The notes beneath the pieces are model-generated. The model made no database searches, was not told the DNA's origin, and was given only the letters and a program-made list of their open reading frames with translations. A stretch of 36,924 bases of DNA from IMG/VR virus record IMGVR_UViG_2645727715_000002; one strand, given 5' to 3'. This DNA comes from a virus (Duplodnaviria; Heunggongvirae; Uroviricota; Caudoviricetes). Made by a program: the position numbers and the translations under genes. Below, piece after piece: positions 3,568 through 36,121 of this stretch. The stretch's first letter is position 1. The number at the start of each line of letters is the position of its first letter.

Positions 3568-3700
3568 TCTTTGGGACTCCTGGCTGATTAAGTATGTCGA
3601 TAAGGCGTTTCCATCCGTCACGTAATTTACGGGTGATTCGTTCAAGTAAAGATTCGGAAGGGCAGCCAGCAACAGGCCACCCTGCAATGGCATATTGCAT
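3536..3700 (-). CDS. cIII: CIII, FtsH (HflB) inhibitor, 54 aa
   Basis: C-terminal 54 aa of ORF 3536..3772 ([54 protein letters not shown]) matches lambda CIII; ATG at 3698-3700. Confidence 0.85.
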   Translation of the reverse strand: MQYAIAGWPVAGCPSESLLERITRKLRDGWKRLIDILNQPGVPKNGSNTYGYPD

Positions 3701-3772
3701 GGTGTGCTCCTTATTTATACATAACGAAAAACGCCTCGAGTGAAGCGTTATTGGTATGCGGTAAAACCGCAC

Positions 3773-4324: not shown

Positions 4325-4422
4325 TCAGGCAGCTTTGTTGTTCTGTTTACCAAGTTCTCTGGCAATCATTGCCGTCGTTCGTATTGCCCACACCATTGAT
4401 TCTTATCAATAGTCGCAGTCAT
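4325..4422 (-). pseudogene. ral: ral remnant with internal deletion and frameshift
   Basis: Minus strand from the ATG at 4420-4422 reads MTATIDKNQWCGQYERRQ then stop; a different frame reads IRTTAMIARELGKQNNKAA-stop, matching the lambda Ral C-terminus. Span is 98 nt versus about 201 nt recalled for lambda ral. Confidence 0.55.
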
Positions 4423-5930: not shown

Positions 5931-6836
5931 TCAATGCTTATTTGGGAGTGCTGGTTTTTTTATCGACTCTAATAGCTCGGAGGCATTACTAATCTTTTTG
6001 TTCCCAAGGTAATTTGGCAGTTTTTCCATTGCGTAATTATCGTGTAGCCATTTTCTGAACACGCCAAGTGCCTCAATAGGATAAATCCAAGCTGTTATAT
6101 GCTTATTTGCAGCTGACTGCCTGTAATTTTCGGGGAATAGATGTGGGTACTGCACCCTTTCCCCGAATTTCTCAGATAGCCCATTAGCTGTCCAATACTT
6201 TCCCCAGTGAATTCCAACACTTCCATCCAAAGATGTGGTGTCATCCATTGGGAATCCTCCTCCGATCAGGTTCATGGCAATGTCAGCTATCTCTCTGAAT
6301 ACTGCAAAATGAGTTGTCGGTATCTGATCGTTTAGCTTAATCCTTGCTCTATAGTTCTCGAATGAGATATCTATTGAAGCATTTGGGTTGTAATTTGACT
6401 TTTCATAAATCATTCGCTTAAGCGTGTACTCAGCCAAGCGAACAAAATTACCTATTGCGACTGACCTATCAAAATTGGTGGCATCTAGAGCGTAGTAACG
6501 GAGGATAGCCATACAAACATAGTCAGGATAAGCATGTGTTTCAACGTTTGAGCTATTTATGACGCGGGTATACAGTCGGTCAACGTTGTTAAATCCTTTC
6601 TCAGCTAAGTATGCAGCTACTTTTTGTCCTCTTGGCTTATTTTTTTCAGTCTCCCAGTTAGATGTAAACATTCGAAGAGGTGCTTCATCTATGCCACATA
6701 ATTTGGCTAAACCGTAAAGAGTTAGATAAGGGGTTCCATCATTAAGCACCCCCATAGGAATGCCATCAGCAACAACTTCTACTGTAGGTACTAAGGGTAA
6801 TTCACCCTGCGATCCGCCCATCGGTAAATTTAGCAT
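5931..6836 (-). CDS. Unknown 301-aa protein in the rexAB position downstream of cI; candidate anti-phage defence or exclusion gene, possibly BstA-like (unverified)
   Basis: Uninterrupted 301-codon ORF with ATG at 6834-6836 and AAGGA upstream; AT-rich relative to the flanking lambda genes; same strand as cI and followed by a terminator; no similarity to RexA/RexB that I can recognise. Confidence 0.8.
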   Translation of the reverse strand: MLNLPMGGSQGELPLVPTVEVVADGIPMGVLNDGTPYLTLYGLAKLCGIDEAPLRMFTSNWETEKNKPRGQKVAAYLAEKGFNNVDRLYTRVINSSNVETHAYPDYVCMAILRYYALDATNFDRSVAIGNFVRLAEYTLKRMIYEKSNYNPNASIDISFENYRARIKLNDQIPTTHFAVFREIADIAMNLIGGGFPMDDTTSLDGSVGIHWGKYWTANGLSEKFGERVQYPHLFPENYRQSAANKHITAWIYPIEALGVFRKWLHDNYAMEKLPNYLGNKKISNASELLESIKKPALPNKH

Positions 6837-10299: not shown

Positions 10300-10372
10300 C
10301 CATCTACATTACTGAGCTAATAACAGGCCTGCTGGTAATCGCAGGCCTTTTTATTTGGGGGAGAGGGAAGTC

Positions 10373-10813
10373 ATGAAAAAACTAACCTTTGAAATTCGAT
10401 CTCCAGCACATCAGCAAAACGCTATTCACGCAGTACAGCAAATCCTTCCAGACCCAACCAAACCAATCGTAGTAACCATTCAGGAACGCAACCGCAGCTT
10501 AGACCAAAACAGGAAGCTATGGGCCTGCTTAGGTGACGTCTCTCGTCAGGTTGAATGGCATGGTCGCTGGCTGGATGCAGAAAGCTGGAAGTGTGTGTTT
10601 ACCGCAGCATTAAAGCAGCAGGATGTTGTTCCTAACCTTGCCGGGAATGGCTTTGTGGTAATAGGCCAGTCAACCAGCAGGATGCGTGTAGGCGAATTTG
10701 CGGAGCTATTAGAGCTTATACAGGCATTCGGTACAGAGCGTGGCGTTAAGTGGTCAGACGAAGCGAGACTGGCTCTGGAGTGGAAAGCGAGATGGGGAGA
10801 TCGGGCTGCATGA
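10373..10813 (+). CDS. ninB: NinB (Orf-family recombination mediator), 146 aa
   Basis: MKKLTFEIRSPAHQQNAIHAVQQILPDPTKP... matches lambda NinB; ATG at 10373. Confidence 0.85.
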   Translation: MKKLTFEIRSPAHQQNAIHAVQQILPDPTKPIVVTIQERNRSLDQNRKLWACLGDVSRQVEWHGRWLDAESWKCVFTAALKQQDVVPNLAGNGFVVIGQSTSRMRVGEFAELLELIQAFGTERGVKWSDEARLALEWKARWGDRAA

Positions 10814-11337
10814 CTATCAAATCAAATACGCCAGCACACGACAAGGACTGCTGGCAAACGCCGCTTTGGCTTTTTGATGCACTGGATATTGAGTTTGGAT
10901 TCTGGCTGGATTCGGCAGCGAGCGACAAAAATGCTCTGTGTGCTCACTGGCTAACTGAGGCCGACGACGCGCTCAATTCTGAGTGGGTAAGCCACGGTGC
11001 AATCTGGAATAACCCACCGTACAGCAATATCAGGCCGTGGGTGGAAAAAGCCGCTGAGCAGTGCATACAACAGCGACAGACGGTAGTGATGCTTGTGCCA
11101 GAGGATATGTCAGTCGGATGGTTCAGCAAGGCTCTGGAGAGTGTCGACGAAGTTCGCATTATCACTGATGGACGGATTAATTTTATCGAACCATCGACAG
11201 GGTTGGAGAAGAAGGGAAACAGCAAAGGCTCCATGCTGCTGATTTGGCGACCGTTCATCAGTCCTCGACGGATGTTTACTACCGTATCCAAAGCGGCATT
11301 GATGGCGATCGGGCAGGGCGTCAGGAGGGCGGCATGA
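10810..11337 (+). CDS. Phage Dam-like DNA N6-adenine methyltransferase (about 175 aa)
   Basis: Translation from the ATG at 10810 ([26 protein letters not shown]...NPPYSN...) has the NPPY catalytic motif of N6-adenine methyltransferases; ATGA overlap with the ninB stop; occupies the position of lambda ninC. Confidence 0.7.
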
Positions 11338-11510
11338 GGCGACAGCGACGAAGTTTCACCGACATCATCTGCGAAAACTGCAAATACCTTCCAACGAAAC
11401 GCTCCAGAAATAAACGCAAGCCAATCCCAAAAGAATCTGACGTAAAAACCTTCAATTACACAGCTCACCTGTGGGATATCCGGTGGCTAAGATATCGTGC
11501 GAGGAAATGA
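11334..11510 (+). CDS. ninE: NinE, 58 aa
   Basis: [58 protein letters not shown] resembles lambda NinE; ATGA overlap with the methyltransferase stop. Confidence 0.75.
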
Positions 11511-11854
11511 CAATGGATTATTCACAGTTAAGTGATTTTGAAATTAACAGAATGGTAGGAGACATAATTTTTAAAGGCCTTTGGGCAAGTAAACCGGAAA
11601 CATCAGGGAATAACACCAACAAATGGTATTACGGAAATGCTGATACAACTTTTGAGCCATTAAATCATTTGCCTGATTACTGCAATGATCCGAGCGCTTC
11701 ATGGCCGATTATTGAGAAATACAGGATTTCTATCTTAGACCAGTTAACTGAATGGTGTGTGGATGCAAAAGGCGTAAGCCCAATATTTGATACCAGACCT
11801 CTCCGCGCCGCCATGATTGTCTTTCTCCTGATGCAGGAGGCCAATAATGCTTAG
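11507..11854 (+). CDS. Hypothetical nin-region protein (115 aa)
   Basis: ORF with ATG at 11507 overlapping the ninE stop (ATGA); no recognisable motif. Confidence 0.5.
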
Positions 11855-12041
11855 CCCATCTCAATCCCTTCAATACCTGAAAGGAAGCATAGAGCGGGCT
11901 TCAATGTGCACAGAGTGGATTCTATCTAGGTTTAGCGCATACAGAAGATTGCCGGTAAAGGGCATGCCAAGCAAGTCGATGCTGCATATGCAAAAGAATG
12001 CGCGCTGGAAGGTATGGCGAGAACACAGGTTATCTGGCTGA
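11847..12041 (+). CDS. NinF-like small protein (N-terminus [10 protein letters not shown] conserved, remainder divergent)
   Basis: The first 10 residues match recalled lambda NinF; the remainder does not. Confidence 0.45.
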
Positions 12042-13218: not shown

Positions 13219-14316
13219 TTAGAACTGGTAAACCAGACCTACAGCAACGATGTCATCAGTGCTTACACCGAGTGCTTTAGTGAAGTCATTTTTGTCAAGC
13301 AGGTTGATTTTGTAATCAACGAAAGTAGACATATTTTTGTTGAAGTAATAGGTTGCACCTACATCAACATATTTGACTAAGTCCTGATCGCCCCATACTC
13401 CAAGATCCTTACCTTTAGATTGCAGGTAAGCAACGGACGGACGCAGACCGAAATCGAACTGATATTGTGCAACAGCTTCGAAGTTTTGGGCTTTATTAGC
13501 AACGAAGTGATCAGCAAATACAGTCATATTCTGGGTTTCAGAATAGGTAGTGGCCAGGTAAATGTTGTTAGCGTCATATTTCAGACCTGCGGCCCAAACT
13601 TCTGCATTTTTACCGGAAGCAAATACTTCAGGAAGAACTTTCCCTGCATTAACTTGAGTGTCGGTACGATCAGATTTCGCATAAGTTGCACCGATACCGA
13701 ATCCTTCGTATTCATAGGTAGCAGAGAAACCGAAGCCATCACCGTTACCTTCAGTGTAGTTATCGAAATCGCTACGATCGTTTTTGCCTTGGTACTGAGC
13801 AGCAAAATTCAGACCATCAACCAGACCAAAGAAGTCGTTGTTACGATAGGTTGCAACACCAGTTGCACGTTGAGTCATGAACACGTCGGTTTGAGTCCAA
13901 GTGTCACCACCGAATTCTGGCAGGACGTCAGTCCACGCACCGATGTCGTATGCTACACCGTAGTTACGGCCGTAATCGATGGAGCCGTAGTCACCGAATT
14001 TCAGGCCAGCGAAGGCAAGACGGGTTTTATCTTTGGAGGAACCTTGAGATTCAGCGCGGTTGCCTTTGAATTCATATTCCCACTGACCGAAACCAGTCAG
14101 TTGATCGTTGATTTGGGTTTCACCTTTGAAGCCAAGACGGGCATAAGTAGTATCACCATCATCTGCATCATTAGAGGAGAAGTAGTGCTTAGCATTAACT
14201 TTCCCGTACAGATCCAGCTTGTTACTGTCTTTATTATAAATTTCAGCTGCCTGAGCAGACATCGCCATCAGTACTGATGCAGCTACAGCAGAAATTGCCA
14301 CTGTTAATTTTTTCAT
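13219..14316 (-). CDS. OmpC/NmpC/Lc-family general porin (phage-borne lysogenic-conversion porin), 365 aa
   Basis: Signal peptide [23 protein letters not shown], 16-strand porin hallmarks and C-terminal ...VGLVYQF; placed between Q and the lysis genes as nmpC is in DLP12 and lc in PA-2. Confidence 0.9.
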
Positions 14317-17099: not shown

Positions 17100-17329
17100 A
17101 TCATTTTGCGGGTCCTTTCCGGCGATCCGACAGGTTACGGGGCGGCGACCTCGCGGGTTTTCGCTATTTATGAAAATTTTCCGGTTTAAGGCATTTCCGT
17201 TCTTCTTCGTTGTAACTTAATGTTTTTATTTAAAATACCCCCTGAAAAGAAAGGAAACGACAGGTGCTGAAAACGGGCTTTTTTGGCCTCTGTCGTTTCC
17301 TTTCTCTGTTTTTGTCCGTGGAATGAACA
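17100..17329. other. cos region (cosQ-cosN-cosB); cosN 12-nt cohesive-end sequence GGGCGGCGACCT at 17140-17151
   Basis: The cohesive-end sequence and flanking bases (…acggggcggcgacctcgcgggttttcgctatttatgaaaattttccggtttaaggc…) match lambda cos as recalled; sits immediately upstream of Nu1. Confidence 0.8.

Positions 17330-17849: not shown

Positions 17850-17875
<26 letters not shown>
17330..17875 (+). CDS. nu1: Terminase small subunit Nu1, 181 aa
   Basis: MEVNKKQLADIFGASIRTIQNWQEQGMPVLRGGGKGNEVLYDSAAVI... matches lambda Nu1. Confidence 0.95.
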
Positions 17876-21557
<3,682 letters not shown>

Positions 21558-21577
<20 letters not shown>

Positions 21578-27681: not shown

Positions 27682-30235
27682 ACCGGTAGGCGATCTGGTC
27701 GTTGATTTGAGTCTGGATGCGGCCAGATTTGACGAGCAGATGGCCAGAGTCAGGCGTCATTTTTCCGGTACGGAAAGTGATGCGAAAAAAAACAGCGGCA
27801 GTCGTTGAACAGTCGATGAACCGGCAGGCGCTGGCTGCACAGAAAGCGGGAATTTCCGTCGGGCAGTATAAAGCCGCCATGCGTATGCTGCCTGCGCAGT
27901 TCACTGACGTGGCCACGCAGCTTGCAGGCGGGCAAAGTCCGTGGCTGATCCTGCTGCAACAGGGGGGTCAGGTGAAGGACTCCTTCGGCGGGATGATCCC
28001 CATGTTCCGGGGGCTTGCCGGTGCGATCACCCTGCCGATGGTGGGGGCCACCTCGCTGGCGGTGGCGACCGGTGCGCTGGCGTATGCCTGGTATCAGGGC
28101 AACTCAACCCTGTCCGATTTCAACAAAACGCTGGTCCTTTCCGGCAATCAGGCCGGGCTGACGGCAGATCGTATGCTGGTCCTGTCCAGAGCCGGGCAGG
28201 CGGCAGGGCTGACGTTTAACCAGACCAGCGAGTCACTCAGCGCACTGGTTAAGGCGGGGGTAAGCGGTGAGGCTCAGATTGCGTCCATCAGCCAGAGTGT
28301 GGCGCGTTTCTCCTCTGCATCCGGCGTGGAGGTGGACAAGGTCGCTGAAGCCTTCGGGAAGCTGACCACTGACCGACGTCGGGCGTGACAGCGATGGCGC
28401 GCCAGTTCCATAACGTGACGGCGGAGCAGATTGCGTATGTTGCTCAGTTGCAGCGTTCCGGCGAAGAAGCCGGGGCATTGCAGGCGGCGAACGAGGCCGC
28501 GACGAAAGGGTTTGATGACCAGACCCGCCGCCTGAAAGAGAACATGGGCACGCTGGAAACCTGGGCAGACAGGACAGCACGGGCATTCAAATCCATGTGG
28601 GATGCGGTGCTGGATATTGGTCGTCCTGATACCGCGCAGGAGATGCTGATTAAGGCAGAGGCCGCGTTTAAGAAAGCGGACGATATCTGGAATCTGCGCA
28701 AGGATGATTATTTTGTTAACGATGAAGCGCGGGCGCGTTACTGGGATGATCGTGAAAAGGCCCGTCTTGCGCTTGAAGCCGCCCGAAAGAAGGCTGAGCA
28801 GCAGAGTCAACAGGACAAAAATGCGCAGCAGCAGAGCGATACCGAAGCGTCACGGCTGAAATATACCGAAGAGGCGCAGAAGGCTTACGAACGGCTGCAG
28901 ACGCCGCTGGAGAAATATACCGCCCGTCAGGAAGAACTGAACAAGGCACTGAAAGACGGGAAAATCCTGCAGGCGGATTACAACACGCTGATGGCGGCGG
29001 CGAAAAAGGATTATGAAGCGACGCTGAAAAAGCCGAAACAGTCCGGCGTGAAGGTGTCTGCGGGCGATCGTCAGGAAGACAGTGCTCATGCTGCCCTGCT
29101 GACGCTTCAGGCAGAACTCCGGACGCTGGAGAAGCATGCCGGAGCAAATGAGAAAATCAGCCAGCAGCGCCGGGATTTGTGGAAGGCGGAGAGTCAGTTC
29201 GCGGTACTGGAGGAGGCGGCGCAACGTCGCCAGCTGTCTGCACAGGAGAAATCCCTGCTGGCGCATAAAGATGAGACGCTGGAGTACAAACGCCAGCTGG
29301 CTGCACTTGGCGACAAGGTTACGTATCAGGAGCGCCTGAACGCGCTGGCGCAGCAGGCGGATAAATTCGCACAGCAGCAACGGGCAAAACGGGCCGCCAT
29401 TGATGCGAAAAGCCGGGGGCTGACTGACCGGCAGGCAGAACGGGAAGCCACGGAACAGCGCCTGAAGGAACAGTATGGCGATAATCCGCTGGCGCTGAAT
29501 AACGTCATGTCAGAGCAGAAAAAGACCTGGGCGGCTGAAGACCAGCTTCGCGGGAGCTGGATGGCAGGCCTGAAGTCCGGCTGGAGTGAGTGGGAAGAGA
29601 GCGCCACGGACAGTATGTCGCAGGTTAAAAGTGCAGCCACGCAGACCTTTGATGGTATTGCACAGAATATGGCGGCGATGCTGACCGGCAGTGAGCAGAA
29701 CTGGCGCAGCTTCACCCGTTCCGTGCTGTCCATGATGACAGAAATTCTGCTTAAGCAGGCAATGGTGGGGATTGTCGGGAGTATCGGCAGCGCCATTGGC
29801 GGGGCTGTTGGTGGCGGCGCATCCGCGTCAGGCGGTACAGCCATTCAGGCCGCTGCGGCGAAATTCCATTTTGCAACCGGAGGATTTACGGGAACCGGCG
29901 GCAAATATGAGCCAGCGGGGATTGTTCACCGTGGTGAATTTGTCTTCACGAAGGAGGCAACCAGCCGGATTGGCGTGGGGACTCTTTACCGGCTGATGCG
30001 CGGCTATGCCACCGGCGGTTATGTCGGTACACCGGGCAGCATGGCAGACAGCCGGTCGCAGGCGTCCGGGACGTTTGAGCAGAATAACCATGTGGTGATT
30101 AACAACGACGGCACGAACGGGCAGATAGGTCCGGCTGCTCTGAAGGCGGTGTATGACATGGCCCGCAAGGGTGCCCGTGATGAAATTCAGACACAGATGC
30201 GTGATGGTGGCCTGTTCTCCGGAGGTGGACGATGA
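27674..30235 (+). pseudogene. H: Tail tape-measure protein H, interrupted by a +1 (A8 run) and a -1 (CC) frameshift (or sequencing errors)
   Basis: ATG 27674 gives MAEPVGDLVVDLSLDAARFDEQMARVRRHFSGTESDAKK then a stop; the lambda-matching sequence continues in frame 0 (27717..28388) and again in frame 2 (28385..30235); junctions at A8 run 27785-27792 and CC 28373-28374. Confidence 0.85.

Positions 30236-32634: not shown

Positions 32635-36121
<3,487 letters not shown>

Follow-up and report, generated by a model that had tools for sequence, protein, structure and literature searches.

What does the gene between ninB and ninE in this lambda-like prophage encode, when would it be expressed, and on which DNA would its product act? 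The locus was analysed within a window, i.e. the whole stretch of DNA of 36,924 nucleotides (IMG/VR record IMGVR_UViG_2645727715_000002). The window is a lambda-like prophage, 97.8% identical to phage mEp332 over 93% of its first 25 kb, and a very similar prophage was found in E. coli LD22-1 at the lambda attachment site, beside ybhC. An earlier note on this DNA had both identified the gene and read functions into it; the identification stood, and the functional readings, which concerned the host methylome and a pairing with ral, found no support. The gene is real, correctly identified and already known, being a very common and routinely annotated module of lambdoid phages. The explanation that very probably accounts for the evidence as a whole is that it encodes a stand-alone SAM-dependent N6-adenine DNA methyltransferase of the HP1-Dam/M.EcoVT2Dam family, which lacks a partner restriction enzyme and would top up GATC methylation during lytic growth.

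In the list of open reading frames and in the raw sequence, the methylase gene is an intact frame of 175 codons on the plus strand, running from the ATG at 10810 to the TGA at 11335-11337. The earlier note had placed an N6-adenine methyltransferase after ninB at exactly these coordinates, and the NPPY motif is indeed encoded within it (Table 1). The start codon overlaps the ninB stop codon (10811-10813) as ATGA at 10810-10813, and the stop codon overlaps the ninE start codon (ATG at 11334) as ATGA at 11334-11337; tight gene packing of this kind is typical of the nin regions of lambdoid phages (PMC8022706). Pfam analysis of the genes following ninE revealed a NinX-family gene, rusA and the Q antiterminator. 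The methylase is an orphan in that none of its flanking genes (ninB, ninE, the NinX-family gene and rusA) is a restriction-system nuclease by Pfam, and the RefSeq annotation of a 100%-identical locus agrees in having no adjacent restriction endonuclease. A 64-aa ORF at 11847-12041 (plus strand), between the NinX-family gene and rusA, had no convincing family match, and in the LD22-1 relative the matching stretch carries the annotation of a partial DUF1364 pseudogene. An antisense ORF of 174 aa at 10944-11468 was taken as a shadow ORF, since it lies across the methylase gene, which is well supported, and RefSeq has no gene there in an identical locus. No RNA family was found within or near the methylase gene by an Rfam scan, the sole Rfam match in the window being the lambda cIII thermoregulator element at 3655-3713 on the minus strand (88.5 bits).

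Table 1. Positions of the methylase gene, its neighbours and its motif codons, and of the late genes split by length changes, in the window
Feature	Position	Strand	Basis
Orphan phage N6-adenine DNA methyltransferase gene, 175 aa, M.EcoVT2Dam / HP1-Dam type	10810..11337	+	PF05869, TIGR01712
ninB (orf), recombination mediator gene, upstream of the methylase gene	10373..10813	+	PF05772, 2e-54; DNA nearly identical to lambda ninB
ninE, downstream of the methylase gene; lambda homology resumes	11334..11510	+	PF05322, 3e-42; alignment
tR2-type intrinsic terminator, between ren and ninB	10325..10348	+	Terminator scan; same sequence as lambda there
NPPY codons (AAC CCA CCG TAC), residues 68-71, catalytic motif IV of amino-methyltransferases	11011..11022	+	Read from sequence
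F31-W-L-D34-S-A36-A37 codons, putative family variant of SAM-binding motif I, predicted strand beta-1	10900..10920	+	Conservation and AF2 model
Terminase large subunit, split by length changes	17850-18278 and 18305-19777		
Portal, split by length changes	19977-20384 and 20381-21577		
Tape measure, split by length changes	27717-28388 and 28385-30235		
J, split by length changes	32638-35064 and 34985-36121		

The protein matched PF05869 (Dam) in Pfam with 218.4 bits against a cut-off of 28.1 (6.4e-65, profile positions 1-167 of 169) and the equivalog TIGR01712 (phage N-6-adenine-methyltransferase) in NCBIfam with 265.9 bits against a cut-off of 97.05 (9.7e-80, positions 1-165 of 165). It also matched PHROG 111 (phrog_111, "DNA methyltransferase", 8.6e-88), and its best matches in PADLOC were orphan methyltransferase ("oMTase") models. 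NPPY is not a chance motif, since the whole protein matches the family HMMs, and the call that the earlier note had made from the motif thus came through the HMM searches with scores far over the cut-offs of PF05869 and TIGR01712. The same note had stated that the gene is not lambda NinC, and this was borne out as well: NinC, a phosphoadenosine-phosphosulfate-reductase-like protein of 290 aa, occupies the same slot directly after ninB in lambda and is unrelated in sequence, no similarity to the methylase being found by BLASTP (E = 9.5).

The term "Dam-like" refers here to the reported target and the chemistry, i.e. to function, and not to ancestry. E. coli Dam, T4 Dam and DpnM belong to another family (PF02086, alpha class), to which the methylase had no match in Pfam; the methylase is about 100 residues shorter and differs from these enzymes in that motif IV follows motif I and a separate target-recognition domain is lacking. 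HP1 Dam and T1 Dam, which are small GATC-specific enzymes, belong by HMM to the same PF05869/TIGR01712 family but are distant in sequence. Members of that family beyond the enterobacterial lambdoid group are 30-43% identical to the methylase.

Conservation was examined in an alignment of 47 homologues, which are 59-86% identical. Residues T17, P18, F31, L33, D34, A36, N68, P69, P70, Y71 and S72 are invariant in all of them, and W15, in an N-terminal W-x-T-P element, is nearly so. N68-P69-P70-Y71 conforms to motif IV, (D/N)PPY, and the F-x-L-D-x-A-A and W-x-T-P elements probably form the SAM-binding region. A single-sequence AF2 model was unusable (pLDDT 43), and the model used was that built with the 47-sequence alignment (pLDDT 81, pTM 0.82). 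In this model a predicted strand at residues 31-36 carries F-x-L-D-x-A, a poorly defined loop spans residues 37-63, and a predicted strand at residues 64-68 runs into NPPY and is followed by alternating helices and strands. The predicted fold is a compact class-I Rossmann-like SAM methyltransferase domain, and the model places it closest to the gamma-type N6-adenine methyltransferases. A fold search of the model gave PCIF1/CAPAM and M.TaqI as the nearest solved folds, at 16-18% identity; both of these, M.TaqI being a gamma-class DNA N6-adenine methyltransferase, are much larger than the methylase and carry extra recognition domains. The DNA adenine methyltransferases M.TaqI, M.BseCI, MmeI, HsdM and Dam follow closely in the same search, and the Foldseek matches to METTL3-14 were weak (E about 0.08-0.14). 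Sequence and profile searches of the PDB matched nothing meaningful and revealed no PF05869 member among the solved structures, which leaves a structural gap for the family as a whole.

The protein is identical at 175 of 175 residues to orf32 of VT2-Sakai (NP_050531) and at 174 of 175 to the 933W homologue (NP_049494). According to PMC6602927, M.EcoVT2Dam was cloned and has 5'-GATC-3' as its known target (Radlinska & Bujnicki 2001, as cited there), and VT-2 is listed among the phage Dam enzymes in PMC7556043. Because orf32 is the only annotated methyltransferase in the whole VT2-Sakai record, we infer by elimination that it is M.EcoVT2Dam. This is consistent with the 933W record, which calls its copy "similar to methylases of bacteriophage HP1 and T1". 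By analogy, the copy in the window would have the GATC-specific m6A activity that the literature reports for the VT-2 enzyme. The identification as an orphan Dam-like N6-adenine methyltransferase is thus upheld by the HMM matches, the identity to the VT2-Sakai gene, the conservation of the motifs and the predicted fold. As a discovery the gene matters little, since its product is the VT2-Sakai enzyme, reported as cloned and with an assigned specificity; its value lies in annotating the prophage, whose virion GATC methylation may be more complete than that of lambda.

A different or broader substrate, i.e. RNA, single-stranded DNA or adenines outside GATC, has been considered and is highly improbable. 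There is a precedent in an MT-A70-type "Dam-like" Stx-phage enzyme that prefers 16S rRNA when partner-bound, which illustrates that annotation alone can mislead (PMC10810198). M.EcoGV / M.EcoPA8orf6770P is, like the methylase, prophage-borne, orphan and annotated as GATC-specific, but it has the motif DPPW, is encoded near int, needs PNB-2, prefers 16S rRNA in vitro and is unrelated to the methylase at the Pfam level (PMC10810198). The methylase carries NPPY rather than DPPW and has no MT-A70 match in Pfam at E <= 0.01, DNA adenine methyltransferases stand close to it in the fold search, and the literature gives GATC as the target of the VT-2 enzyme, which is probably the very protein encoded by orf32. 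For the same reasons (MT-A70 type, DPPW, position near int and dependence on a partner), the STEC prophage "rRNA methyltransferase" of PMC10810198 was rejected as a counterpart of this gene. A link to the non-specific adenine methylases Hin1523, Nma1821 and Hia5 was also dropped, the paper on these enzymes mentioning neither HP1 nor VT-2.

A three-way DNA alignment showed that the window is virtually the same as lambda from ren to the end of ninB, is identical to 933W-type sequence across the whole methylase gene, and returns to lambda a few bases into ninE. Since lambda identity ends after ninB and resumes at ninE, ninC and ninD have both been replaced by the methylase module, at clean mosaic junctions; the earlier note had the gene in place of ninC, which is right as far as it goes, and the loss of ninD has to be added. 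The homologues of VT2-Sakai, 933W, Phi24B, HK97, HK544, Sf6 and Sf101 have the same length and occupy the same slot directly after ninB, and in most of this group, 933W excepted, ninE follows directly. Compared with VT2-Sakai, the gene itself does not differ, whereas the backbone is of the lambda type (O/P/ren/ninB) here and of the Stx-phage type there. DNA 95-100% identical to the methylase gene was found in 244 phage records, among them HK544, Sf6, Sf101 and numerous lambda-like isolates and Stx1/Stx2 phages, and the order in annotated records is usually ninB, methylase, ninE. At 95% identity or more, the gene is present in 1566 of 5426 complete E. coli genomes (about 29%), where RefSeq names it "phage N-6-adenine-methyltransferase". 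More distant members of the family were found in about 1900 phage records from many hosts.

As to the timing of expression, the terminator between ren and ninB is one that we take, from the lambda map, to be tR2. Because the methylase gene is downstream of this tR2-type terminator, it is in the N-dependent delayed-early transcript of the pR operon and therefore should be silent in the repressed prophage. A promoter scan just upstream of the gene gave no convincing candidate, and fewer promoter-like sites than in shuffled sequence. The earlier note had supposed that expression from the prophage alters host methylation. Such an enzyme, made by the resting prophage and changing the methylation pattern and gene expression of its host, has some points in its favour: the Phi24B protein, which is 100% identical to NP_050531, was detected with a lysogen-specific antiserum, its authors speculate on a role in lysogens in which it supplements host Dam, and host Dam has been reported as necessary for stable 933W lysogeny (Murphy et al. 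2008, as cited by the same authors). We nevertheless regard it as very unlikely, and the evidence together argues against a prophage copy that reshapes the host methylome. Besides the position behind pR and the terminator, there is qPCR evidence: expression of the identical Phi24B gene changed significantly upon induction with norfloxacin, and the gene fell into one group with four CMAT-identified genes showing patterns of expression tied to the lytic cycle. The Phi24B authors attribute such signals to a spontaneously induced subpopulation. In addition, according to PMC6602927, GATC was 99.9% methylated both in STEC 95JB1, which has no copy, and in 95NR1, which has two copies; the only extra motif in 95NR1 is assigned to a type IIG enzyme and none is attributable to the methylase. 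E. coli hosts are already Dam+, with the reported target GATC methylated to about 99.9% by host Dam on the evidence of the same paper, and a change of the methylome by the methylase is not expected in a Dam+ lysogen.

The role that we favour, lytic GATC top-up, would proceed as follows. Transcription from pR would reach the gene only after loss of the repressor and N-mediated read-through of the tR2-type terminator, translation would probably be coupled to that of ninB, and the enzyme would thus act on phage DNA as it replicates in the lytic cycle. On this DNA it may top up the GATC methylation that host Dam cannot finish when phage genomes replicate fast. Progeny DNA fully methylated at GATC would be safe in the next host from restriction enzymes whose cutting at GATC is blocked by methylation, and would presumably be treated as "old" by MutH and SeqA. 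Virion DNA of lambda and P22 is reported to be incompletely methylated at Dam sites, perhaps because the host enzyme cannot keep pace with replication (PMC8022706), and the window contains 102 GATC sites. The function of phage Dam enzymes has been described as "still not well understood" (PMC7556043), and the literature found contains no demonstration that restriction evasion or methylation top-up by the enzyme benefits a lambdoid phage when the host is Dam+. It is conceivable, though improbable, that the enzyme has a role so far unrecognised, either in tuning spontaneous induction or the stability of lysogeny, on which the 933W report cited above bears, or in countering a host defence that detects phage DNA left under-methylated during replication. 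If true, such a role could explain why an enzyme seemingly redundant where the host is Dam+ persists with hardly any sequence change in about 29% of complete E. coli genomes.

The earlier note had also pointed to the methylase together with a degraded ral gene as a notable combination. That ral is degraded was confirmed: compared with lambda, the remnant at about 4325-4422 on the minus strand has an internal deletion of 103 bp, which breaks the frame. The identical junction was recovered, in one ungapped alignment at 100% identity, from at least 8 complete E. coli genomes among the matches listed, and RefSeq marks the deletion allele as a frameshifted Ral pseudogene; given its presence at 100% identity in other genomes, it is a real, circulating allele. 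The pairing with the methylase is coincidental. Strain 5CRE51 carries the deletion allele in a lambdoid prophage in which ninE directly follows ninB without a methylase, LD22-1 carries a 100%-identical methylase gene together with an intact ral, and the two traits therefore assort independently. No functional link between them was seen, the targets being type I systems for Ral and, reportedly, GATC for the methylase.

With ral broken and several late genes frameshifted relative to close relatives, the prophage might be suspected of decaying and the methylase of being a non-functional passenger. This is extremely unlikely, since the methylase ORF is intact, encodes the same protein as VT2-Sakai, shows no indel against the references and keeps all the invariant residues of the family, and the late-gene frameshifts, mostly single-base homopolymer changes, may be sequencing errors. 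Using the LD22-1 prophage as the reference for indels, single-base length changes were located at 17279, 18261, 18342, 20228, 23175, 27785, 28375, 34993, 36158 and 36836, nearly all within A or T homopolymer runs; the late genes split by length changes are listed in Table 1. The two terminase insertions occur together in none of the 3343 complete E. coli genomes that have this terminase segment, and the late-gene length changes go back either to sequencing errors or to private decay of this prophage.

Two further genes of the prophage were recorded. A gene of 301 aa at 5931-6836 on the minus strand, lying between N and cI where lambda has rexAB, matches the abortive-infection defence protein BstA (PADLOC 3.6e-106, PHROG 6287 4.9e-135) and has no Pfam family. 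Between Q and the lysis genes, on the opposite strand, a complete Gram-negative porin gene of 365 aa (PF00267, 5e-157) was identified at 13219-14316 on the minus strand; this NmpC/OmpD-type moron has counterparts in DLP12-like prophages.
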